This document shows, piece by piece, positions 8,978 to 28,864 of a DNA stretch of 64,000 nt; position 1 is the stretch's first letter; every line of letters begins with the position of its first letter. The stretch is taken from contig BTVY01000022.1 in NCBI GenBank assembly GCA_045863335.1, positions 42,753 through 106,752 of the forward strand. The letters are read 5' to 3'. The position numbers and the translations under genes are program-made. The notes beneath the pieces were generated by a model. It worked only from the letters and a program-made list of their open reading frames with translations. It was not told the origin of the DNA and did not search any database. The DNA is from Candidatus Hydrogenedentota bacterium (GTDB lineage Bacteria; Hydrogenedentota; Hydrogenedentia; Hydrogenedentales; SLHB01).

Positions 8978-11491
8978 CTACTCTTCTTCCGAGTCCGCGT
9001 CTGGGCCGGCCTCTGCGCCGCCCGCCAGTTCCGCGGCTTCATCCGCGACCTGGTCCTGCTTCTCTTCGGCGATGGCGCGGGCTACCGCGCTGACTTTCGC
9101 GCCTTCCGACGGCGTCATGACCTTGACGCCCTGCGTGTTGCGGCCGATGGTGCGCATGTCTTTCACCGCCGTGCGAATGATGATACCGTCCGTGCTGACC
9201 ACGACGATCTCGTCCTGATCGTCCACCGTCATCATTCCGACCACGTTGCCGTTGCGCTCGGTGGTCTTGATGTTGATGATGCCCTGGCCGCCACGATGCT
9301 GGAGCCGGTATTCACCGACCTTTGTGCGCTTGCCGTACCCGTTCTCGGTGACGCTCAATACCGTCATGTCGTCGGCGGCGATGGAAACGCCAATCACACG
9401 ATCGCCTTCCGCCATGCGGATGCCGATGACGCCGCGGGCGGTGCGTCCCATGGGCCGCACGTCCTTCTCGGGGAAGCGGATCGACATGCCAAGGTACGTG
9501 GCGATGAGAATGTTGTCTTCGCCAGACGTGATGGACACTTCCATGAGCATGTCGTCTTTGTCGAGGTCCATGGCGATGATGCCTGTGGCCCGGGGATTGC
9601 TGAACGCCTTTAACGCCGTCTTTTTCACGACGCCTTTCTCGGTCACCATGAAGACGAACTTGCCCTCTTCGTCAAGATCCCGAACAGGCAAACTGGCCGT
9701 GACCACCTCCTCGCCGCTCAGATTGAGCACGTTGACGATGGCGCGGCCCTTGGCCGTACGGCTCGCTTTGGGCAACTCATGCACCTTGCGCCAGTAGACG
9801 CGGCCCGTGTTCGTGAAGAACAGCAGGTATTCGTGGGCCGACGCGATGAAGAGGTCTTTGACGAAATCTTCTTCCTTCGTCTCCATACCGGTCACGCCGC
9901 GGCCGCCGCGCCGCTGTTTGCGGTAGGCGCTGACGGGCACGCGCTTGATGTACCCTTGATTCGACACCGTGACGACCATATCCTCGTCGGCGATGAAATC
10001 TTCGACGCTGAACTCGGACCGCTCGCCCAGAATTTGAGTGCGCCGGGCGTCGCCATATTTCTCTTTAACTGCCAGAATTTCCTTGCGCACTTCCGCGAGG
10101 ATGGTTTTCTCGCTGGAAAGGATCTGCCGGAACATCTCGATCTGCTTGAGCAGGTCCGCGTACTCCTTCTCCAACTCCTCGCGTTCGAGACCGGTCAAGC
10201 GTCGCAGGCGCATGGCCAGGATGGCGTTCGCCTGAATGTCGGTAAACGCAAACCGCTCCTTCAACCGCTCCCGCGCGATGTCCGCGTCGTCCGACCCGCG
10301 AATGATGGCGATGACTTCGTCGATATGATCGATAGCCTTCAGCAATCCCTCGACAATGTGCGCCCGCGCTTCGGCCTGGGCCAGGTCGTATTCGGTCCGG
10401 CGCCGGACAATTTCCGCGCGGTGCTTGACGTAGTACTGGACCACCTCGACCAGCGACAATACGCGCGGCTGGTTGTCCACGAGCGCCAGCATGAGAATGC
10501 TGAAGGTGTCCTGCAATTGCGTGTGCTTGTACAGCTGATTCAGGATTACCTGCGGCTCGTCGCCCTTGCGCACCTCGATAACGATCCGCATGCCGTCGCG
10601 GTCGGACTCGTCGCGCAAGTCGGTGATGCCCTCGATAGCCTTGGAACGGACCAACTCCGCGATATTCTCGATGACGCGCGATTTGTTGACCTGGTACGGA
10701 ATCTCCTGGACGATGATCCTGTCCTTGCCACTCGTCTCGTCGTGTTCGATGGCGACTTTCGCGCGCACCACGATGCGTCCGCGCCCTGTGCGGTAAGCCT
10801 GAGCAAGCCCTTCGGAGCCGTAGATGATGCCGCCCGTCGGGAAATCGGGCGCGTGAATGAAGCGCATGAGATCCTTGGTCTTGGCATCCGGGTTGTCGAT
10901 GTAATGCACGACCGCGTCGCACACCTCGTTGAGGTTGTGCGGCGGGCAACTCGTCGCCATACCGACCGCGATCCCGTAGGAACCGTTGACCAGCAGATTC
11001 GGAATGGCGGATGGCAACACGACGGGTTCCTGAAGCCGCCCATCGTAGTTGTCCTGCGTATCGACCGTTTCCTTCTGGATGTCGGCCAGCATCTCGGACG
11101 TAATGGCCGTCATCCGGGATTCCGTGTATCGCATGGCCGCCGGACTGTCGCCGTCGATGGAACCGAAGTTGCCTTGTCCGTCGATCAGGGGATACCGCAT
11201 CGACCAGGGTTGGGCCATGCGAACCAACGTGTCGTAGAGCGCCTGATCGCCGTGGGGATGATACTTGGCCATCGTGTCACCGACCGTCGCGGCCGACTTG
11301 CGGTATCCGCGATTGTGAACGAGGCCCAATTCGTGCATGGCGTATAGAATGCGGCGATGAACCGGTTTGAGCCCGTCGCGCACATCCGGCAGCGCACGGC
11401 TCACGATTACGCTCATGGAGTAATCCATGAACGAGGTCTTCATCTCCTGTTCGATCGCGATTGGTACGATTCGTTCGGTCGGTGTGTCCAT
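8978..11491 (-). CDS. gyrA: DNA gyrase subunit A
   Basis: [29 protein letters not shown] catalytic Tyr, GyrA-box QRRGGRG, and C-terminal pinwheel repeats. Confidence 0.98.
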
Positions 11492-17018: not shown

Positions 17019-17198
17019 ATGAGTCATGTAAAACGGGTGACCAAAGTGAAGCAGACTCCGGCACTGGCGGCAGGCGGAGATATTGCGGACTGCTTCAGGG
17101 GGTTCATCAATGGCGAGTACCCGCTTTTCGGTGTGCCGAGCTTCCTGGACTGTGTGAAGTGCTCCAAAGGCGGCGGTAGCTGCGCCGAGCCTGAATAA
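17019..17198 (+). CDS. Small protein P4 (59 aa) of the MKH...PxxA leader family, Cys-rich core
   Basis: MSHVKRVTKVKQTPALAAGGDIADCFRGFINGEYPLFGVPSFLDCVKCSKGGGSCAEPE. GGAGGG RBS 8 nt upstream, with its own promoter and terminator. Confidence 0.8.
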   Translation: MSHVKRVTKVKQTPALAAGGDIADCFRGFINGEYPLFGVPSFLDCVKCSKGGGSCAEPE

Positions 17199-20402: not shown

Positions 20403-21104
20403 ATGCAACTCGAATTCGCCTTTCGCGATCCGGGGTCGCTCCATAGAGAACTGGAAAGCCGATCCGGCTTGCGCCTGAATCTGGTTCTTACCGACAACTC
20501 CCATACGGTCATGTCGGTGAAGCATCATCCTGTATCCGGCGTCGTCGCGCTGCGCATGCACCACATGTTCCTGGGGGCGGACCCAGACGTGGTGCAGGCC
20601 CTCGCCATCTGGCTCAAGCGGCCATCGTGCCGGCGTTCGGGCGACGTCATCGACCGGTTCATTCGCAGCAACCGTCATCTGGTGCGGCGGCGGGCAAACG
20701 CCCAGCGCCGCCTCTATCCCGTGGGCGCGGTGTACGACCTCCGCGCGATGTACCGCGAAGTGAACGACGCATACTTCAATGGGACCTTGGACGCCGCCAT
20801 CACCTGGGGCCGCAGGCCGACGGGAAAGAAGCGGCGTTCGATCCGGTTCGGCAGTTACTCGGTAGAGGAGCATCTAATCCGCATTCACCCTTATCTGGAT
20901 CGCGTGGAGGTGCCCGAGTTTTTCGTCCGGTACATCGTGTTTCATGAAATGCTCCACGCCCACCTCGGGATCGAGGAAAGCCCCACGGGCCGGCGGAAGA
21001 TCCATACGCCGGAATTCAAACGCCTCGAGCGGACGTATCCCGATTTTGAACGTGCCGAGGCGTGGCAGGCGAAACCGTCAAACTTGCGAATGCTGTTGCG
21101 CTGA
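20403..21104 (+). CDS. SprT-like zinc metalloprotease
   Basis: VNDAYFNG.L...ITWG, RFGSY, IRIHPYLD...VPEFFVRYIVFHEMLH (HExxH) and H.PEF motifs. Confidence 0.8.
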   Translation: MQLEFAFRDPGSLHRELESRSGLRLNLVLTDNSHTVMSVKHHPVSGVVALRMHHMFLGADPDVVQALAIWLKRPSCRRSGDVIDRFIRSNRHLVRRRANAQRRLYPVGAVYDLRAMYREVNDAYFNGTLDAAITWGRRPTGKKRRSIRFGSYSVEEHLIRIHPYLDRVEVPEFFVRYIVFHEMLHAHLGIEESPTGRRKIHTPEFKRLERTYPDFERAEAWQAKPSNLRMLLR

Positions 21105-21119
21105 GAGGGCGAAGTATCG

Positions 21120-21641
21120 TTGTCAGAACCCATCCCGCAAGAGTCCGCTATTCAACGCCTGGGCAGGCGAGTGCGCTACATCATCGTGCTCCTGAGTTCG
21201 GGGTTGCTCGTGATGACCCTTTCCTACCACGCCAGCCTGTGGCGCCTTCGCGGTGAGACGCCGCCGTCGCGCGCCGCGCAAGAAGGCGTTTCGAGCGATG
21301 AATCACTTGAAGCGTTGTCGCAACAGATGATCGCGTTGATGCGCGAGTATCTGGAACGGGCCTCGAACGAAGGCTCGCCCCCGAGCCAAGGCTTCCATGA
21401 TTGGTCCCTTGATGGTTTCGCGCCGCGCGTCAGCGACCTGAGACGCCGCATTCAGGCCGCGTCTTCGGAGGGGGAGGCGTGGAACGCCATGCTTGTGGCG
21501 TCCGACCGGATGGTGGCCATGGCGCGTCAACCCGGCCAGGCCAGCCTGCGGCAATTGGCGACCGACAATGTGTTTGACGCGGCGGCCGCGGTCGAGAACC
21601 GGCTTGGCGCGACCCGCAGCATCGGTCGAGATGGCTCATGA
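21120..21641 (+). CDS. Hypothetical membrane-anchored protein
   Basis: Single N-terminal TM (YIIVLLSSGLLVMTL) followed by a helical domain. TTG start. Confidence 0.65.
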   Translation: MSEPIPQESAIQRLGRRVRYIIVLLSSGLLVMTLSYHASLWRLRGETPPSRAAQEGVSSDESLEALSQQMIALMREYLERASNEGSPPSQGFHDWSLDGFAPRVSDLRRRIQAASSEGEAWNAMLVASDRMVAMARQPGQASLRQLATDNVFDAAAAVENRLGATRSIGRDGS

Positions 21642-21788
21642 CAAGCCCGTCATTGCGGCTCGCTTGGCGAATGGCCCGGCGTTACCGTACACTCATGGTA
21701 TTGAGTGCGGCTGTCGGGTCGATTTTCAGGGATTCCAACTACTTGTGATGTTTGGCAAAACGGGCTGTATTTATGGTGAGACCGGAAC

Positions 21789-22430
21789 GTGGCAACGAAA
21801 CCTCAAGGTCAGCGTAACCCGTTACCGGGTATGGACTACCGTTTGAGTACCGAATCTCAAACGGATGAGGAACTGATGTGCCTGCTCTGCGACGGCACGG
21901 CGGATGCCCTCGGCACGCTGGTCCATCGGTACCAGAATGACATTTTCAGATTCTGTCTCCACTACGTGCGGGATGTGGAACGGGCCCGGGAAATGGCCCA
22001 GGAAACCTTCATTCGCGTGTATGTGGCGCGGGCGCGGTTCGATGCGAGCCGCAAGTTTCGGCCCTGGGTGTTGTGCATCGCGCGCAACCTCTGTTTGAAC
22101 GAATTGAAGCGCAAGAAGGCGGTTCCCATGGAATCGCTCGAAGAATACGCGAGTTCGGCCCGCGAAGATACCGGTGAGGTATTGCAGTCGCCGTCCGATG
22201 GCCCCGACGGGCTGTTGATGACGGCGGAACGATACGAACTGCTGGCGGAAGCCTTGGCTTCGCTGGATGAAGAATCGAGGGAGATTGTCACGCTCCGTTT
22301 CTTCGAACGGATGCAGGCACGGGACATCGCCGAGATTGTCGGCAGCACCGAGGGCGCGGTGCGGACTCGGTTGCACCGAATCCTGAAGTCGTTGCGGGAC
22401 GTGTATCAATCGGCAAAGGACGACTTGTGA
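21789..22430 (+). CDS. ECF (RpoE-type) RNA polymerase sigma factor
   Basis: DEELM, LVHRYQ, QETFIRVY, FRPWVLCIARNLCLN and region 4 IAEIVGSTEGAVRTRLHR. Start uncertain. Confidence 0.92.
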   Translation: MATKPQGQRNPLPGMDYRLSTESQTDEELMCLLCDGTADALGTLVHRYQNDIFRFCLHYVRDVERAREMAQETFIRVYVARARFDASRKFRPWVLCIARNLCLNELKRKKAVPMESLEEYASSAREDTGEVLQSPSDGPDGLLMTAERYELLAEALASLDEESREIVTLRFFERMQARDIAEIVGSTEGAVRTRLHRILKSLRDVYQSAKDDL

Positions 22431-24010
22431 ACACTGGGGAATTGGAAAGAATCCAGGATGAGTTAATCGCTCTCCTGGAGGGCGAGTTGAGCCCTGAAGA
22501 CACGATGCGCGTGGAAGCGCGGATCGCGTCGTCAGAGGCCTATCGCCGGGAGCTTTCCTGGCTCAGGGCCGCCCACGCGGACCTCGATGCCATGGGCCGC
22601 GCCTTCGCATCGCAGTCCCCCCAAGTGGACCTCGTTCAGACGGTGATGAGCACCATCTCGGAAGCCGGCCGGCCCAAGCTCGTTTCCATCGACGCGGAGC
22701 GCGCGCGACGCCGCGAACGCGGCCGCACCTGGCTTGGCGTGGCCGCCGCGGCCGCCGTTATTCTCGGCGCCGTCGGATACCTGATCTACGCCGCCATGCC
22801 CCCGGCCCCTGTCGACGGGCCTGGTTCCAAAGAACAACTTGCAGGCCCCGGAAGCGATACCCCCGTCGTACCCGGCGCACCGGATTACGAATCTCTTGAG
22901 GAATCCGACACCGAACTTGCGCGCCAACGCAAGGAGTTTCTGGAGAAACGGCAGAAATTGAACGACGACGTAGAGTTGGCTTTGTCCGGCGGCACGATTG
23001 AAGAAACCGAACGGCCAGTACTCGATGCTCCAAGCATGGACGAGATTCTTACCGCGCGCCGGGATGCGTCGGATGACCGGCGGGGAATTTCCCGCCTGGT
23101 GCAATGGGCATCGCTCAAACGTGAGCAAGCCCTCGAACTCGCGCAAGATCCCGATTCGTCTCCCCAAGTTATTGTGGGTGCAGCCGAGTCGTTGACGGCC
23201 CAGGAGGCCGCGCAGGTCTTGCTCACGGTCGTCGGGCAGAACCCGGAGGACCCCTACGCACGGTTGGAACTCGCCCAGGCGTACGATGAAGCTGAAGAGC
23301 CGGGTACCGAAGCGGAAGCGATGGGACAATTGCCGACGCTCTATACCCTGGACCCGGATAACGCATTGCCCTACTACCTCGAAGCCAAGCTTCGGCTCGA
23401 GCAGAATGACCTCGCGGGAGCGCTTGAAGCGCTACGCATCGCGCAGAGCCTCCCCAAGGCCAGCGCCTACTCCCTGGAGTCGGCCTTGGCGAGGGCGGAA
23501 GCGCTTATCGCAAGCGGGCTTCCGGCCGATGAAGCCAAGCTGGTTTCCGCCCTGACCGCGGGGATGGATCAGTACAATTTCCTTTGCGATCTCGGAAAGA
23601 ATCTGCTAGAATACGGCCAAGACTATATGGCGGTAGGGGATTACGACACCGCCGAAGACATCTTTGAGGCCGTGCAGCGGTTGGGCCAGCAGGCGGAGGA
23701 AGGGGCATCTTTCTCTCAAGAGCAGTTAGCCGGTCTAGACATGCAAGCAGCCGCAATCGATGTGTTGGAAGAGCTTTACACGGCAATTGAATCGACTGAG
23801 GGAATCGATCAGCTTGCAACGCAGACGCGCGACCTCGTCGCCAGTATCGACCAGCTGAGCGGGTTCTTCGACGCGCTGGATCAACTGTTCTTCAGCGAGG
23901 AAAGCTCCGATTTCTTCAACATGATTTCCGGGTGGATTCTGGAGTCCGGAGACCTCGCGCTCTTCGACTACCTCGAGGAGATGGGGATCTCCCTCACCGG
24001 CGCCCAGTAG
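22427..24010 (+). CDS. Membrane-anchored anti-sigma factor with acidic TPR-like extracytoplasmic domain
   Basis: Overlaps the sigma stop (GTGA). N-terminal anti-sigma-like helix pair (LIALLEGELSPED..RVE..I) without HxxxCxxC, one TM, and TPR-like segments (LDPDNALPYYLEA). Confidence 0.75.
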   Translation: MNTGELERIQDELIALLEGELSPEDTMRVEARIASSEAYRRELSWLRAAHADLDAMGRAFASQSPQVDLVQTVMSTISEAGRPKLVSIDAERARRRERGRTWLGVAAAAAVILGAVGYLIYAAMPPAPVDGPGSKEQLAGPGSDTPVVPGAPDYESLEESDTELARQRKEFLEKRQKLNDDVELALSGGTIEETERPVLDAPSMDEILTARRDASDDRRGISRLVQWASLKREQALELAQDPDSSPQVIVGAAESLTAQEAAQVLLTVVGQNPEDPYARLELAQAYDEAEEPGTEAEAMGQLPTLYTLDPDNALPYYLEAKLRLEQNDLAGALEALRIAQSLPKASAYSLESALARAEALIASGLPADEAKLVSALTAGMDQYNFLCDLGKNLLEYGQDYMAVGDYDTAEDIFEAVQRLGQQAEEGASFSQEQLAGLDMQAAAIDVLEELYTAIESTEGIDQLATQTRDLVASIDQLSGFFDALDQLFFSEESSDFFNMISGWILESGDLALFDYLEEMGISLTGAQ

Positions 24011-24049
24011 GCAGATACTGCGTTCGCCGAACTCTCCACCCACAAGGGG

Positions 24050-24078
24050 TTGCTTATTGCGATCAATTCGTTCACAAT
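24050..24078 (+). promoter_or_regulatory. Possible sigma70-type promoter of the small-peptide array
   Basis: TTGCTT (24050-24055), 17 nt, CACAAT (24073-24078). Confidence 0.4.
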
Positions 24079-24174
24079 AAGGGGTACAGACAAGCTTATT
24101 GTTTGGACCAAGCGGATTGGGAAATGGTTTCCAACCAATAACAAGACGGAAGGAGAAGGGAGGTGAATCGCCAT

Positions 24175-24327
24175 ATGAAGCATGTGAAGGTGCTGTCGAC
24201 CGAAAAGCCCGTGTGCGCCGAACAAGTCGCGTGGGTGGAGTTCAAGAACATTTTTGGGCCGCTCAAGTTGCGTCCTGAGCAACAGAATTGGCTCGTCGCA
24301 TTGATTGACAACTGGCTGCAGAGCTAG
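24175..24327 (+). CDS. Small protein P1 (50 aa) of the MKH...PxxA leader family
   Basis: MKHVKVLSTEKPVCAEQVAWVEFKNIFGPLKLRPEQQNWLVALIDNWLQS*. Strong RBS GGAGGTG. Absent from the ORF track (<60 aa). Confidence 0.8.
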   Translation: MKHVKVLSTEKPVCAEQVAWVEFKNIFGPLKLRPEQQNWLVALIDNWLQS

Positions 24328-24504
24328 TCATTCGACCAGTGAGACATCCCGTGAGGGTACATGCGGAAGGAGAGATGGAGAGGATAGCTCCTGTATCTAT
24401 CCATTCCAACGCTTCCGCGAACGAAGCTCCTGTTCACAACGGATTGGAACGTTACAACCCATAGCTCTGTGCAATGGGAGTGTTTCGCGAAAGGGTAAAC
24501 GACA

Positions 24505-24663
24505 ATGAAACACGTTCGTAAGATATCGAAGAATGCGCCGGTGACCGCTTGGTGGTTCGGCTGGTTCGGTAAGGGCGGTGAGCTGAAGGGTGGTACCGCT
24601 AAGGTTGACTACATCAATCAGCTTTGGTTCACCAACGGCTCCTTGGATCCCCGAGACGTATAA
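24505..24663 (+). CDS. Small protein P2 (52 aa) of the MKH...PxxA leader family
   Basis: MKHVRKISKNAPVTAWWFGWFGKGGELKGGTAKVDYINQLWFTNGSLDPRDV*. RBS AAAGGGT. Absent from the ORF track. Confidence 0.8.
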   Translation: MKHVRKISKNAPVTAWWFGWFGKGGELKGGTAKVDYINQLWFTNGSLDPRDV

Positions 24664-24794
24664 GCGCCCCTCCACACGTGTCCGCTCGCCGCGGACGCAA
24701 CGGTCAGCGTGACACCGTTCCGCTGACGCGCGAACGAAGGGGTACGAAACTGCGTTTTAACTGGGGACACAAACCTTAAGGAGGTTTAAGGATC

Positions 24795-25004
24795 ATGAAG
24801 CACATCGGTCGCGTTTCGAAGGCGCTTCCGGCCACCGCATATGAGGTGCCGAGAAACTATTTCGACATTATGAGCTGGACCGACATCGTCGTCGTCATCG
24901 GCCTTACCATGGAGAAGTGGTGGGGTTGGCTGTTCGGCGGTTACCTGCTGCCCGAAGGGCTGCTGGGCGACCGGAACGGCAACGGCGTCATCGACGGCCA
25001 GTAA
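24795..25004 (+). CDS. Small protein P3 (69 aa) of the MKH...PxxA leader family
   Basis: MKHIGRVSKALPATAYEVPRNYFDIMSWTDIVVVIGLTMEKWWGWLFGGYLLPEGLLGDRNGNGVIDGQ*. RBS AAGGAGG. Confidence 0.85.
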   Translation: MKHIGRVSKALPATAYEVPRNYFDIMSWTDIVVVIGLTMEKWWGWLFGGYLLPEGLLGDRNGNGVIDGQ

Positions 25005-25063
25005 GATCTCGAATTCAACGTGGTGGTTGTGCGCAACCCGCGCACGCCCCCGTCAGAAGTGGT

Positions 25064-25102
25064 GGCGGACCACAGCGATATGCTGCGGTCCGTCGTTTTT
25101 TT
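25064..25102 (+). terminator. Intrinsic terminator after the peptide array
   Basis: ggcggaccacagc-gatat-gctgcggtccgtc followed by gttttttt. Confidence 0.75.
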
Positions 25103-25246
25103 ACCGGGCTATTCTTTCGCCAAACACTACGCCCTCGCGCTAGAAGCCCCATCGTGCCACTCTACCGTCTTGTTGCCTGCGCTGTCTCTATTGTCCCCGT
25201 CGGCCCAACGCCGGCTTTGTCTCCTTCGGAGCCATCCCAACTCGGA

Positions 25247-27337
25247 TCAGCGGCGGCTCTTCCCACGCTTCGCGTTCCGTTTCCCCGCTTCTGCCTTCAC
25301 GTTCCCGTTCGGAGCCACGCGCAATTCCACGATGTCCCGTGCGGCGCGCACGTGGCGATTCACGAGGTGTTCCGGGATCTCCAGCGCGAAGCGGCTGGTC
25401 GTTGTCATGCGCTCCCGCCCATGCCGCACGCGCGACATGGCTTCAAACAGCGTCACGTGACGTTGCCCGCGCGTGAGCGCCACATAGAATAGTCTTCGTT
25501 CCTCTTCGATGGATATCTCGTCCATGCTCTTGTCATGGGGGAGCAAACCTTCCTCCACGCCCATGATAAACACGAATGGAAACTCCAGCCCCTTCGAGCT
25601 GTGGATCGTCATGAGCGACACGGCATCCTTCCGCCGTTCCCGGCTTCCACGCCCCTTGAAGTCGGACGTGTCCAGCGAACTCGTATCCAGAAACCCGCTC
25701 AAGGTAGGTTTCGGCGTCGAGCGCTCGTAGTCCGCCATGGCGCCTACCACCGCCTCGATGTTGCCCCAACGCATGTTCGCCTGGTCCGCGGATTTGCTCG
25801 TGCGCACCAGCTCCGCCCGGTACCCGATGGCATCCAGCAATTGCAGCAACGTCGCGGCCAACTGCCCCTCGCATTCGCGGAAGCGCCGCCGGAACTCCGT
25901 AAGGATCGCGAGGAAACTCCGAATGCCCTGCTCGGCCTGCGGCGCCACCTTGCCCCGCGCGAGCGCCTGCGCTAAACCCTTGCCCAGGCTCAGCGATTCC
26001 GCGCGGCACAGGTCGTGCACTTCGTGCAGTGTCACATCGCCGATGCCCCGGCGCGGGACGTTTACGATCCGGAGAAACGCGGTCTCGTCCCAAGGGTTCG
26101 CGATGGTGCGCAGGTACGCCACCACATCCCGCACCTCGCTGCGCTCGAAGAAGTCCTGCCCGCCGTACACTTCATACGGAATACTCGCCTGGCGCAGGGC
26201 GATCTCCAGCGGACGCGATTGCAGGTTCGACCGGTAGAGCAGCGCAAAATCCCCGAAATCCGCGTTCGACTTCTGCAGGATGTGTTGTAGCCAATGAACC
26301 ATCTCCTTGGCTTCGTGTTCGTCGTCGCCCGTCACGATCCAGTCGATGCATCGGCCGGCGCCGAGGTCGCTCCAGAGCGTCTTCACCCGCCGGAACCGGT
26401 TGTTCAGAATCACGCTGTTGGCGGCCTGAAGAATGGTGGTAGTCGAGCGGTAGTTCTGCTCCAGCCGCACCACCGCCGCCTCGTGATATTCACGCTCAAA
26501 ATCGAGAATGTTCTCGATACCCGCGCCCCGCCACGCGTAGATGGATTGATCGTCGTCGCCCACGACGCAGAGGTTCCGGTGCGCGGCCACGAGCGCGGAC
26601 AACAGCTCGTACTGCGTCCGGTTCGTGTCCTGATACTCGTCGACCATGATATACCGGTACTGCTTCTGATAGCGCGCGAGTACCCGGGGATGTTCCCGCC
26701 ACAAGCGTAAGGTAAGCAACAGCAGGTCGTCGAAGTCCATCGTATTCGCGGCCCGCAACGCGGATTGGTACCGGTCATAAAAGTCCGGGAGCCACTTGCC
26801 GTACTTGGCGTCCGTGCTCTGGCCGTTTGCGCCGTCCTTCTTGGCCGAATCGTCTGCCTGGAGATTCGTCTTGCCGCTCTTAACGAGGCTGATCCGTTCC
26901 AACACAATGGCGGGACTGAAACTCTCCTTTACATCAGCGACATCATCCAACATGCGGCGCACGATCGCGCGGGTGTCCGCTTCGCCCGACACGGTGAAAT
27001 TGCGCCGGTATCCCACGTGCTCGCATTCCGCTCGCAACACGCGCAGGCAAAACGAATGGAACGTCGACAGCAGGATGCGCTCCGCAACCTTCCGGCCCAC
27101 CAGTTCCGCGATCCGCGACCGCATTTCTTCGGCGGCCTTGTTGGTAAACGTGAGCGCCAGGATCTCTTCCGGCGCGGCGATACCTTCCGCCACCAGATAC
27201 GCGATGCGCCGCGTGATGACCCGCGTTTTGCCGCTTCCCGCGCCCGCGAGCACCAATACGGGCCCCTCGGTCCGGCGTACGGCTTCCGCCTGCTGCGGGT
27301 TCAGACCATCAAACAATTTTCGACTGCTTACCAACAA
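25247..27337 (-). CDS. UvrD/Rep/PcrA-family ATP-dependent DNA helicase
   Basis: LNPQQ, LAGAGSGKT, TFHSF, VDEYQDTN, VVGDDDQSIYAWRGA, LEQNYRS, TIHSSKGLEF and EERRLFYVALTR motifs. Confidence 0.95.
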   Translation of the reverse strand: MLVSSRKLFDGLNPQQAEAVRRTEGPVLVLAGAGSGKTRVITRRIAYLVAEGIAAPEEILALTFTNKAAEEMRSRIAELVGRKVAERILLSTFHSFCLRVLRAECEHVGYRRNFTVSGEADTRAIVRRMLDDVADVKESFSPAIVLERISLVKSGKTNLQADDSAKKDGANGQSTDAKYGKWLPDFYDRYQSALRAANTMDFDDLLLLTLRLWREHPRVLARYQKQYRYIMVDEYQDTNRTQYELLSALVAAHRNLCVVGDDDQSIYAWRGAGIENILDFEREYHEAAVVRLEQNYRSTTTILQAANSVILNNRFRRVKTLWSDLGAGRCIDWIVTGDDEHEAKEMVHWLQHILQKSNADFGDFALLYRSNLQSRPLEIALRQASIPYEVYGGQDFFERSEVRDVVAYLRTIANPWDETAFLRIVNVPRRGIGDVTLHEVHDLCRAESLSLGKGLAQALARGKVAPQAEQGIRSFLAILTEFRRRFRECEGQLAATLLQLLDAIGYRAELVRTSKSADQANMRWGNIEAVVGAMADYERSTPKPTLSGFLDTSSLDTSDFKGRGSRERRKDAVSLMTIHSSKGLEFPFVFIMGVEEGLLPHDKSMDEISIEEERRLFYVALTRGQRHVTLFEAMSRVRHGRERMTTTSRFALEIPEHLVNRHVRAARDIVELRVAPNGNVKAEAGKRNAKRGKSRR

Positions 27338-27418
27338 TGCACCTTCTCAGGGAGTTTGAATGAGTTCGCAAGGGCGGGGATTGTAACAACTGAATGGACC
27401 GAGGTCCACCACTCCGCG

Positions 27419-28864
27419 TCAGGATTGGGATTCGCTGGCCACCGGACCACGATTGCGCCACAAGTAATAGAACGGAATGCCGGAAAACACCAGCACCAGC
27501 CCGATCCCGGCGTTGCGCGGGGCCTGGTAGATCGTCACGCACACGAGCACGAGACAGAACAGCACAAACACCGCCGGAACGACCGGGTATCCAGTCACGC
27601 GGTACGGGCGTGGCTCGTCCTTCATCTTCCGGCGCAACACGAACACACCAAATGCGCCGGCACCGTAAAAAATAAACGACGCGAAGATCACCATGTCCGT
27701 CAACTGATCGAAAGTGCCGCTCATCACCAGCAGCGACGCCCACACCGCCTGGATGATCAACGAGACGGAAGGGGTCTTGTGCACCGGATGACACGTCGCT
27801 GCCGCCTTGAAGAACAGGTGATCGCGCGCCATGGCGAAATAGACTCGGGAGTGGGGCATGAGCTGACAGTTGGTCGCCCCGAAGGTGGACAGCAGAATGA
27901 GGATCGCGATCAATTGCGCGCCGCGATCGCCCATGACGTTTCGCATGACCTCCACGGCGACGATGCTGTTCTTCGTTTCCACCAGAGCCGCCATCTCGTC
28001 CACCGGCATGACGTAGAGATAGGCCGCATTGACGATCATATAGACGCCGATGACGCCGAGCGTGCCGATGCCGAGGGCGAGGGGAATGTTCCGTTTGGCG
28101 TTGCGGACCTCCGCGCCCAGGGACGTGATGTTGTTCCACCCGTCGTAGGCCCAGAAGGCGCCCAGGAACGCGGCAAACATGGCTCCGAAAAGCCCTAGCG
28201 AGGAGCCGTACTCGGCCTGCGGATTCTCGAGAACCGGTTGCAGATGGGCCGCCGATCCGTTGCTCAACACCAATCCGAGCAGGATGATCAGCGCGATCCC
28301 GGCCAGCTTCAGCACCGTGGTCATACTCGCGATGACGCCTCCAAACACGACACCAAAATAGTTCGCCGTAGTCAGCGCCGTGATGGTAAAAATCGTGAAG
28401 ACCTTTACGCCAAGGTTGTCGAGGGGGTAGAAAAGTCCAAAGATGGACCATGCCTCCAATTCCGGCGACAGACGCGGAAAAGCAATCAACGCGTTGGCCG
28501 ATTCACCAAAGACATACGCGATGGAACTGATCGACGCGGTCTGAATGACCGTGAAGGACGACCACCCGAACAGAAAGGCAAACCCGCGGCCGTACATGCG
28601 CTTGAAGTACTGATACTGGCCGCCGGGCTCGGCGATCATCCCCGCGATCTCGGCATTCGTCAATGCGCCGAATAACGTCATGATGCCCGCGATAAGCCAA
28701 CATGCGAGCAGCAACCCCGGCGACTGCAACTCCGCCGCCATAGGCGCGGACTTCTTGAAGATGCCCGATCCGATCATGTTGCCCATAATGATCATGCAGG
28801 CGGTAAACAACCCCAGCTTGGCAATCAAGCCGCTGGGATGGACATCTGCGGGCCGATGCTGCAT
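27419..28864 (-). CDS. APC-superfamily amino acid permease
   Basis: MIGSGIF, WAYDGWN, EVRNAKRNIP, RVYFAMARD and RPYRVTGYP motifs; about 12 TMs. Confidence 0.92.
   Translation of the reverse strand: MQHRPADVHPSGLIAKLGLFTACMIIMGNMIGSGIFKKSAPMAAELQSPGLLLACWLIAGIMTLFGALTNAEIAGMIAEPGGQYQYFKRMYGRGFAFLFGWSSFTVIQTASISSIAYVFGESANALIAFPRLSPELEAWSIFGLFYPLDNLGVKVFTIFTITALTTANYFGVVFGGVIASMTTVLKLAGIALIILLGLVLSNGSAAHLQPVLENPQAEYGSSLGLFGAMFAAFLGAFWAYDGWNNITSLGAEVRNAKRNIPLALGIGTLGVIGVYMIVNAAYLYVMPVDEMAALVETKNSIVAVEVMRNVMGDRGAQLIAILILLSTFGATNCQLMPHSRVYFAMARDHLFFKAAATCHPVHKTPSVSLIIQAVWASLLVMSGTFDQLTDMVIFASFIFYGAGAFGVFVLRRKMKDEPRPYRVTGYPVVPAVFVLFCLVLVCVTIYQAPRNAGIGLVLVFSGIPFYYLWRNRGPVASESQS

Follow-up and report, generated by a model that had tools for sequence, protein, structure and literature searches.

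What is the role of three adjacent small genes that share their N-termini and differ in all that follows? This question is raised by P1, P2 and P3, which lie in tandem at positions 24175-25004 of the window, i.e., the whole analysed stretch of 64,000 nt from a Candidatus Hydrogenedentota bacterium (contig BTVY01000022.1). Our answer is that P1-P3 are probably precursor peptides of a leader-dependent system specific to Candidatus Hydrogenedentota, similar in kind to those of RiPPs, peptides made by ribosomes and modified after translation. The three genes and the element behind them are as follows.

24175-24327, + strand: P1, 50 aa (from the list of open reading frames); leader MKHVKVLSTEKPVCA, core ending in WLVALIDNWLQS
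24505-24663, + strand: P2, 52 aa; leader MKHVRKISKNAPVTA, Trp/Gly-rich core ending in GSLDPRDV
24795-25004, + strand: P3, 69 aa; leader MKHIGRVSKALPATA, core composed of a hydrophobic stretch and KWWGWLFGG
25064-25094 (hairpin) plus 25096-25102 (U7), + strand: intrinsic-terminator-like element (from RNA folding)

The initial annotation of the window had described three open reading frames (ORFs), each with its own ribosome-binding site, followed by one terminator. Coordinates, Shine-Dalgarno sites and RNA folding agree with this description: a purine-rich Shine-Dalgarno stretch is found a few bases 5' of every ATG, and the hairpin 3' of P3 folds with -24.9 kcal/mol (z -2.0 vs. 200 shuffles). 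A simple terminator and promoter scan called neither this hairpin, which it overlooked because the stem is interrupted, nor the promoter-like element in front of P1 (see below). The first 15 residues of P1, P2 and P3 all match MKH[VI]xx[LIV]Sx3P[VA]xA exactly, as had been stated, and past Ala15 the three are mutually without similarity; P1 contains a single Cys, P2 and P3 none. Read by eye, the 15-residue leaders of P1-P3 and of the family introduced below are mostly polar or basic. Direct reading of the leader sequences reveals no hydrophobic h-region, RR, lipobox or prepilin G|F...E5, and the earlier claim that h-region, RR, double-Gly and prepilin motif are all missing agrees with the sequences. 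Among the Pfam and NCBIfam models (E<=1), including the Nif11 and NHLP leader models, none matches P1-P3 except for a beta-lactamase model that hits P2 at chance level (E 0.2).

P1-P3 are real, conserved and transcribed small genes. The 6.75-Mb source genome offers 386,935 starts with at least 25 codons. Among these, the strict motif has three matches, which are P1, P2 and P3 only, and the regular expression of the initial annotation and a looser one have 11 and 17, respectively. On the reversed, uncomplemented genome (206,325 starts) all three expressions yield 0 matches. Leader codons vary synonymously from copy to copy; conservation therefore acts on the protein. P1 orthologues are found at 13 loci with identities down to 38%, and the orthologue cores of both P1 and P2 are retained in related genomes down to 27-42% identity. 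The initial annotation had supposed that C-termini are not conserved, which does not hold among orthologues: those of P1 retain W39, L40 and N46 and share the C-terminus WL..DNxLQK, and those of P2 share the C-terminus GSLDPxD. The cores are thus conserved among orthologues and under purifying selection: between close relatives, most codon differences leave the residue unchanged in P1 (14 synonymous vs. 3 nonsynonymous when compared with locus L031) and P3 (11 vs. 3 for locus L033), and P2 is mixed.

With regard to transcription, part of the stretch 24100-25110 is present in 22 of the 24 public runs listed, and 14 of these 22 are recorded as RNA (11 studies; wastewater, sludge, bioreactors). 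We aligned contigs of four RNA libraries from four studies to positions 21000-28000. A single 3265-nt contig of library X6 reaches from 21794, at the start of the sigma factor gene described below, to 25062; the remaining contigs cover 23552-25006 (X16), 24097-25035 (X14) as well as 24013-24935 and 24908-25061 (X8). That is, the contigs of four studies terminate at 24935-25062, which is a weak hint that the transcript ends near the P3 hairpin. A long near-identical contig extending into uvrD, which lies on the other strand, occurs in none of the four libraries, where only pieces of up to ~260 nt are found. RNA depth was not used to rank expression, and uncovered parts were not counted as evidence. 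As a side observation, the P2-P3 spacer (24664-24764) is replaced or diverged in the strains of all four RNA libraries, and the flanking genes are 90-99% alike.

The leader is shared by a larger family. In the following, G000 refers to the source genome of the window, other G-numbers to related genomes and L-numbers to loci. In G000, 18 short ORFs (31-69 aa) at 12 places combine the leader with a good Shine-Dalgarno site. A leader profile built from G000 only (A1) finds 21 matches there, to which a later profile adds a few more; P2 has the best score among P1-P3 (33.6 bits, E 5.4e-7 per genome). One further member is located within the window:

17019-17198, + strand: further leader-family member, 59 aa; leader MSHVKRVTKVKQTPALA, Cys-containing core; orthologue in G004 (L042)

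Across 54 peptides, M1 and H3 of the leader are invariant, and P12 and A15 are at least 90% conserved. The leader ends in A-x-A with variable position -2. The cores comprise Lys/Pro-rich 12-16-mers, amphipathic helices, glycine-zipper-like hydrophobic stretches and Cys pairs. With profile A1, 30 of 31 relatives show matches at E<=1; at the stricter limit of E<=0.001, 46 of the 121 genomes drawn from the phylum do so, including 34 of the 47 from the window's own family. For another family (f5), A1 finds leader matches in 0/14 genomes, yet two of its loci show 4-5 peptides by eye; the count of 46/121 is therefore an underestimate of the leader's range. The loci with leader relatives belong to Candidatus Hydrogenedentota. 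Proposed in the initial annotation as a check, the leader scan thus returns many dispersed matches with variable cores in the genome and its relatives, and the postulated lineage-specific combination of constant leader and hypervariable cores is borne out by ~18-21 ORFs in the genome and by the relatives from Hydrogenedentota. Public protein collections contain many P3 homologues, and leader peptides appear in them only unnamed or as 'hypothetical protein' with no Pfam domains. The assertion that P1 and P2 are missed by standard ORF calling had to be dropped, since their homologues are called publicly under just this name. Against PDB chains, A1 gives 0 matches at E<=10.

Which machinery could serve these peptides? 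That none adjoins P1-P3, as annotated initially, is correct: within their neighbourhood we find no modifying enzyme, protease or exporter, the neighbours being a sigma/anti-sigma pair and uvrD. The accompanying suggestion that the machinery acts in trans gains a candidate in a gene cluster on contig C15 of G000, which we link to P1-P3 by way of the shared leader. We added 40 leader loci from other genomes to the search and clustered the neighbours over 51 loci. One gene set is common to L004 (G000 contig C15), L061 (G029) and L072 (G027), i.e., to three different families. The core locus on C15 lies outside the window at ~4.8-11.7 kb of the contig. It occupies a single strand, with a peptide array first, followed in the same direction by GNATs, a CPBP protease, an ABC ATPase with its permease, and a protein of ~640 aa. 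The GNATs are two or three small RimJ/RimL-like proteins (PF13302, Acetyltransf_3, up to 67.1 bits). The putative protease, a membrane protein of 239-245 aa, matches PF02517 (Rce1-like/CPBP) with 48.2 and 35.6 bits vs. a cut-off of 22.4, and its EExxxR, FxxxH and HxxxN motifs are visible. The ABC ATPase is DrrA-like (TIGR01188, 230 bits) and paired with an ABC-2 permease. The initial annotation had suggested looking for a co-occurring peptidase, transporter or radical-SAM gene; a peptidase (CPBP), a transporter (ABC-2) and a radical-SAM-derived protein are thereby found.

We extended the comparison to 20 further loci around homologues of the 640-aa protein, which represent at least 10 families; one of the genomes, G033, is kin at phylum level only. 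For 17/20, there are 1-5 leader peptides directly upstream of the cluster (L088, L094 and L095 are without), and 18/20 have all five tested genes in identical order. The peptide adjoining the first GNAT is always 38-41 aa long and has a core that begins with RADAF. Across all members, including the cluster-borne ones, the best-shared part of the leader is its first 8-9 residues, not the PxxA end. The cluster-borne peptides (17/20 plus L004, L061 and L072) thus have a putative enzyme for leader binding or modification, together with protease and transporter genes, as neighbours; P1-P3 do not. The five L061 peptides match none of the NCBIfam leader models at E<=0.1; their sole match is a chance-level RND-suffix domain (E 0.051).

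The ~640-aa protein is encoded by the last gene of the cluster:

L004 2811-4733, same strand as the array: gene of the 640-aa protein; N-terminal RRE-like domain (RRE, RiPP recognition element), SPASM remnant, C-terminal GNAT

By homology it is a relative of ranthipeptide maturases in which the radical-SAM cluster motif is lost and a GNAT domain has been added. In NCBIfam, it scores best with the ScfB-related orphan maturase model NF040492 (E 3.4e-21) and with the model of the SCIFF maturase, TIGR03974 (E 1.8e-18), in both cases far under the respective cut-offs (66.7 bits vs. 425 for TIGR03974; 75.6 vs. 855). Among solved structures, CteB (5wgg_A) comes closest with E 2.8e-16; here, residues 3-83 match CteB 5-85, i.e., its RRE domain, and residues 349-439 match CteB 350-440 from the SPASM domain. 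Towards its C-terminus, the protein is similar to RimL-type acetyltransferases. A Radical_SAM domain is not detected by Pfam on the cluster proteins, and the CxxxCxxC radical-SAM motif is missing in all 20 aligned homologues. The SPASM part, which retains 4 invariant Cys in this alignment, is degenerate, and a PF13186 search missed the C15 protein; the middle region is poorly conserved. Within the RRE-like domain, His8 is invariant, and Cys24, Cys26 and Cys29 (ETCFCFECD, C-x-C-x2-C) are at least 90% conserved at positions where CteB has no Cys. The leader's His3 is invariant as well, such that a metal site shared with the RRE-like domain is conceivable. A protein atlas labels the cluster of the 640-aa protein 'hypothetical protein'; its rows below 0.9 (a radical-SAM/acetyltransferase cluster at 0.84, SCIFF maturase at 0.80) were taken as leads only and not used as support.

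According to two articles, the 18-residue CteA leader is bound by the RRE of CteB as an extra beta-strand (PMC6231123, PMC8326336). The earlier verdict that the leader matches no recognised class therefore stands in one respect only: no Pfam or NCBIfam leader model matches, but the N-terminal domain of the cluster protein is homologous to the CteB RRE. Given this homology, the leader is best read as a putative recognition sequence of RRE type, not as a new kind of export signal.

Next to their adjacency, cluster and leader co-occur throughout the phylum. Homologues of the 640-aa protein are present in 112 of the 121 phylum genomes, mostly single and full length, and in every one of the 46 leader-positive genomes. 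For the 9 genomes without it, we applied a broader leader profile (A6, 51 rows): 8 give nothing below E 0.33, and matches that begin at profile position 1 are absent from these 8. All of 5 further genomes with the 640-aa protein contain leader matches (best E per genome 6.4e-7 to 0.025), which in many cases adjoin the gene.

The link of P1-P3 to the cluster was examined by two further means. The first is an independent profile made of only 56 cluster-borne peptides from 19 loci in other genomes. It ranks the G000 leader ORFs at the top of the 386,935 starts, with P2 at rank 24 and P1 at rank 27. The second is a complex prediction for the full 640-aa protein and residues 1-30 of P1, which scores a median of 0.57 (0.45, 0.57, 0.72) with at least 53% of contacts in common between runs and a partner pLDDT of at least 41; the highest-scoring of 3 controls reaches 0.00. 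The mark for this score is reached by 58/80 solved complexes and 2/110 mismatched pairs, and those passing it at <=0.60 are only 7 of the 80 solved complexes plus both passing mismatches. Since a like complex (CteB-CteA) is already solved, the pass may reflect memory. The prediction thus lends weak support to a pairing of leader and 640-aa protein.

Taken together, we propose the following course of events, all four steps of which are drawn from homology and gene order. The recognition leader would be the shared N-terminus of ~15 residues, MKH-[IVL]-x-x-[LIVM]-[ST]-x2-4-P-x-x-A. The RRE-like domain would bind the leader, which would extend it by a beta-strand, one or more GNAT domains would acylate the core, the CPBP protease would cut off the leader, and the ABC-2 pump would either export the product or shield the producer. 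P1-P3, equipped with their own promoter-like element and terminator, are most likely satellite precursors that would be served in trans.

Several observations weigh against this proposal. No cluster gene adjoins P1-P3, and their service in trans is inferred solely because they share the leader. The cluster-only profile assigns P1 and P2 E-values of 2-3 and P3 fails at E<=10. On its own, the RRE-domain alignment to CteB is marginal (19.9 bits, i-E 0.0019), and the complex prediction yields no interface and hence no placement of the leader on the RRE-like domain. The absence of the radical-SAM motif means that the chemistry has to differ from that of the nearest characterised relatives. The RADAF-core peptide, the most conserved type within the cluster, has a leader devoid of P-x-x-A, so that recognition may require no more than the first 8-9 residues; the cleavage after PxxA supposed in the initial annotation is not supported. 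Regarding co-occurrence, 7/9 genomes without the 640-aa gene belong to a single family (f3), and such kin are not independent, so that few independent events stand behind the pattern. Furthermore, one genome (G064, 88% complete) has leader peptides, and no ScfB-like gene was found in it: its locus holds the array, both GNATs and the ABC ATPase, without permease or ScfB-like gene, which in its congener G022 sit at a separate locus (L094). The contexts of other family members are very diverse, e.g., a sulfate-transport operon, a position after amtB-glnK or after porin genes, which would also fit small proteins with unrelated cellular roles. Finally, RNA contigs indicate presence in the libraries, neither transcript ends nor levels.

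The surroundings of P1-P3 comprise two genes and two conserved upstream elements on the same strand:

21789-22430, + strand: ECF-type (extracytoplasmic function) sigma factor; Sigma70_r2 61.2 bits and Sigma70_r4_2 48.9 bits (Pfam), TIGR02937 103.3 bits (NCBIfam)
22427-24010, + strand: anti-sigma-like membrane protein, 527 aa; start overlaps the sigma stop; zf-HC2-like N-terminus, TPR-like C-terminal part of ~400 aa
24050-24078, + strand: promoter-like element TTGCTT-N17-CACAAT between the anti-sigma stop and P1 (from an alignment of 13 upstream regions)
24147-24167, + strand: purine block CGGAAGGAGAAGGGAGGTGAA, 21 nt, containing the P1 Shine-Dalgarno; near-invariant in 13 aligned loci

Downstream of P3, a UvrD-like helicase (uvrD) is encoded on the opposite strand. 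Position, synteny, a single hydrophobic span (residues ~100-125) and matches that all stay below their cut-offs (NF052375 40.1 vs. 100, TPR_19 24.4 vs. 25, zf-HC2 16.4 vs. 22.2 bits) weakly suggest that the product of 22427-24010 is the anti-sigma partner. Within the extent of their flanks, all 13 orthologous loci keep the order sigma, anti-sigma, P1, P2, and the synteny of sigma, anti-sigma and P1 extends to other genera and families, where P1 identity is 38-43%. The two conserved upstream elements suggest that P1-P3 are transcribed from a promoter of their own and that the region of their translation start is under unusual constraint. The purine block contains several GGA motifs and is conserved across genera beyond what a ribosome-binding site needs; it could be the binding site of a translational regulator.

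The constant placement behind an ECF sigma gene and an anti-sigma-like gene suggests an envelope-signalling circuit with P1-P3 as its output or ligand, i.e., a signalling role. For comparison, a review describes SCIFF peptides as near-universal in Clostridia, which it takes to argue against an antibiotic role, and as linked to quorum sensing (PMC8326336). An extended version of our proposal, which we consider quite unlikely in this detail, is a phylum-wide network: a ScfB-derived scaffold devoid of radical chemistry would hand ~20 peptides per genome to GNATs, perhaps docking them through a metal shared by the leader's His3 and by His8 and Cys24/26/29 of the RRE-like domain. P1-P3 would leave the cell after maturation and act on the anti-sigma protein, whose TPR-like outer domain would sense them, such that the array would form the signal half of a self-sensing ECF circuit.

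Other members of the leader family show recurrent contexts of their own. A Porin_O_P gene is immediately followed by a leader-family peptide at 5 loci (L007 9409-11085 on G000 C37, L053, L056, L062, L074), where the peptides have three different core types; on C37 the pair heads the sulfate-transport operon sbp-cysTWA. A peptide type with two Cys and a core starting with AVWQDVLC is found at another 5 loci (L008 9561-17513 on G000 C47, L052, L059, L077, L078), between amtB-glnK on its upstream side and, on its downstream side, an LRR protein and giant BACON/VWA proteins; on C47, two sigma-54 activators are near. Very short Lys/Pro-rich cores (12-16 aa, K-P-V repeats) occur at L001 (8312-8686 and 11523-12025 on G000 C1), L016, L045, L051 and L075. 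On C1, five such members form two groups around an outer-membrane-like protein, an ArsR-type regulator and SRPBCC proteins. On C3, a more diverged leader peptide starting with MKHFAPIT (L002 ~9544-9960, i.e., C3 89543-89959) lies just upstream of the C3 member and has the same two-Cys core type, such that both form a tandem pair that the first regular expression had missed.

Some further candidates for the machinery were rejected. Paralogues common to the 12 G000 loci (sulfatase, DUF1559/N_methyl, GFO_IDH_MocA, sigma-54 activators, ABC ATPases) belong to abundant families. An RRE-rSAM-SPASM enzyme of 470 aa on C13 (L040 6368-9635) sits beside its own likely substrate and not near a leader peptide. 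Its partner is a 616-aa membrane protein with a Gly-rich tail containing Cys-Ala repeats; the two look like a separate peptide-modification pair, presumably one that resembles ACGX-repeat systems. A stand-alone PqqD-like gene on C4 lies in an unrelated low-GC region with no leader peptide near.

Could the leader be an export and cleavage label only? In this case, the CPBP protease and the ABC-2 pump or another exporter would read it and P1-P3 would be secreted unmodified, as class II bacteriocins or signalling peptides are, and the ScfB-like/GNAT protein would act only on adjoining peptides. We hold this to be unlikely, but the most viable of the alternatives. Protease and ABC transporter are conserved in the cluster, and the extreme core diversity (Lys/Pro-rich, amphipathic, hydrophobic, Cys-containing) suits a generic label better than one common chemistry. 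In addition, P-x-x-A reads like the end of a signal-peptidase site, and the cluster-only profile recognises P1-P3 weakly. On the other hand, it is the first 8-9 residues, not the PxxA end, that are shared best, and the ScfB-like protein is the only cluster protein with a known type of leader-binding domain. ABC-2/DrrA-type pumps are not known to have a leader-reading domain.

We regard it as very unlikely that the N-terminus is kept, such that the peptides are small intracellular or membrane proteins that dock to a shared partner (e.g., the RRE-like hub) or carry a degradation or acetylation tag, with P1-P3 regulating the ECF pair. The members within housekeeping operons (porin-peptide-sbp-cysTWA, after amtB-glnK, beside gltBD), the likewise housekeeping-like distribution of the cluster (near-universal and mostly single-copy, 112/121) and the strict synteny with the sigma pair would fit this view, as would the fact that RimJ/RimL-like GNATs act on protein N-termini. 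It does not account for the membrane protease and exporter conserved in the cluster, and the sharp loss of similarity past residue 15, combined with core conservation among orthologues only, is the pattern of leader and core.

Highly improbable is a relic, i.e., that repeated duplication of a well-translated gene start left the shared N-terminus and that P1-P3 are unrelated to the C15 cluster. In its favour, Lys-rich codons after the ATG favour expression, and short profiles yield marginal E-values. But the motif is kept as amino acids with synonymous changes while the rest of the genes diverged beyond recognition, it is kept across families of the phylum, and 8/9 genomes without the cluster gene are also without leader matches. 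That P1-P3 are chance open frames, for which their shortness and the longer chance ORFs overlapping them on the opposite strand could be cited, is already refuted by the orthologous cores kept at 13 loci, the excess of synonymous changes, the strong Shine-Dalgarno sites, the reversed genome devoid of any motif match and the RNA-library contigs spanning all three genes.

For Hydrogenedentota, uncultured and common in wastewater and sludge communities, the precursor reading provides a concrete, testable peptide system with a defined leader, ~20 candidate products per genome and a core locus of seven genes. If true, a radical-SAM maturase without cluster motif would have been reused as a leader-binding scaffold fused to an acyltransferase, and the prochlorosins would be joined by a second example of a single locus that acts on many scattered precursors. 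That three precursors strictly accompany an ECF sigma/anti-sigma pair provides an entry to the question of signal vs. antibiotic.

How does this compare with known systems? Within the titles and abstract openings of the literature, we found no description of the system. Its parts carry public record names such as 'hypothetical', 'uncharacterized protein', 'SPASM domain-containing protein', 'GNAT family N-acetyltransferase' or 'radical SAM protein with 4Fe4S-binding SPASM domain'.

In Rap-Phr/RRNPP cassettes, a TPR receptor gene is followed by small peptide genes. Likewise, a gene with TPR-like repeats is directly upstream of P1-P3 in strict synteny; here, however, the TPR-like part (sub-cut-off in Pfam) is carried by a membrane anti-sigma-like protein and is expected on the outer side, not in the cytoplasm. 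With double-Gly/C39 ABC peptides the system shares leaders of similar length, diverse small peptides and an ABC exporter, but there is no Gly-Gly, and an ABC-2/DrrA pump is combined with a separate CPBP protease. C39 domains in G000 are restricted to frames of 1618-2243 aa (C4:71795, C61:16712, C88:4827) and a weak 289-aa match, none of them at the contig positions of leader peptides.

GNAT-modified RiPPs (selidamide/lipoavitide-type, acylated lasso) also have GNAT genes beside ribosomal precursors, and GNATs acylate lasso peptides according to a preprint. In contrast, our cluster combines 2-3 RimJ/RimL-like GNATs with a GNAT on a dead radical-SAM scaffold, and lasso, NHLP or Nif11 elements are absent here. 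The prochlorosin-type lanthipeptides rely on one enzyme for many dispersed precursors with a constant leader. This is mirrored by a single-copy candidate enzyme locus and, in each genome, ~20 scattered small genes whose leader is conserved and whose cores are hypervariable, whereas the leader is unrelated and much shorter here and the enzyme type is unrelated.

The SCIFF/ranthipeptide system of Clostridia (precursor TIGR03973; ScfB/CteB TIGR03974, 5WGG) contains with CteB the best solved relative of the 640-aa protein. Both systems have short leaders (15-17 aa here vs. 18 aa for CteA), and both are near-universal in their lineage rather than sporadic, as is reported for SCIFF (PMC8326336). They differ in that the 640-aa protein is without CxxxCxxC and has a GNAT fused C-terminally, and in that the precursors are not Cys-rich and are many and dispersed vs. 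one. Searching the genome with TIGR03973 (six Cys in 45) leaves the leader family unmatched; the only match is on C26 (E 0.8, 13 bits) and contains 2 stops. The first residues of the leader may resemble those of SCIFF leaders. Overall, the system appears to work like an RRE-dependent RiPP pathway with a scaffold derived from a ranthipeptide maturase, but it stands outside that family.

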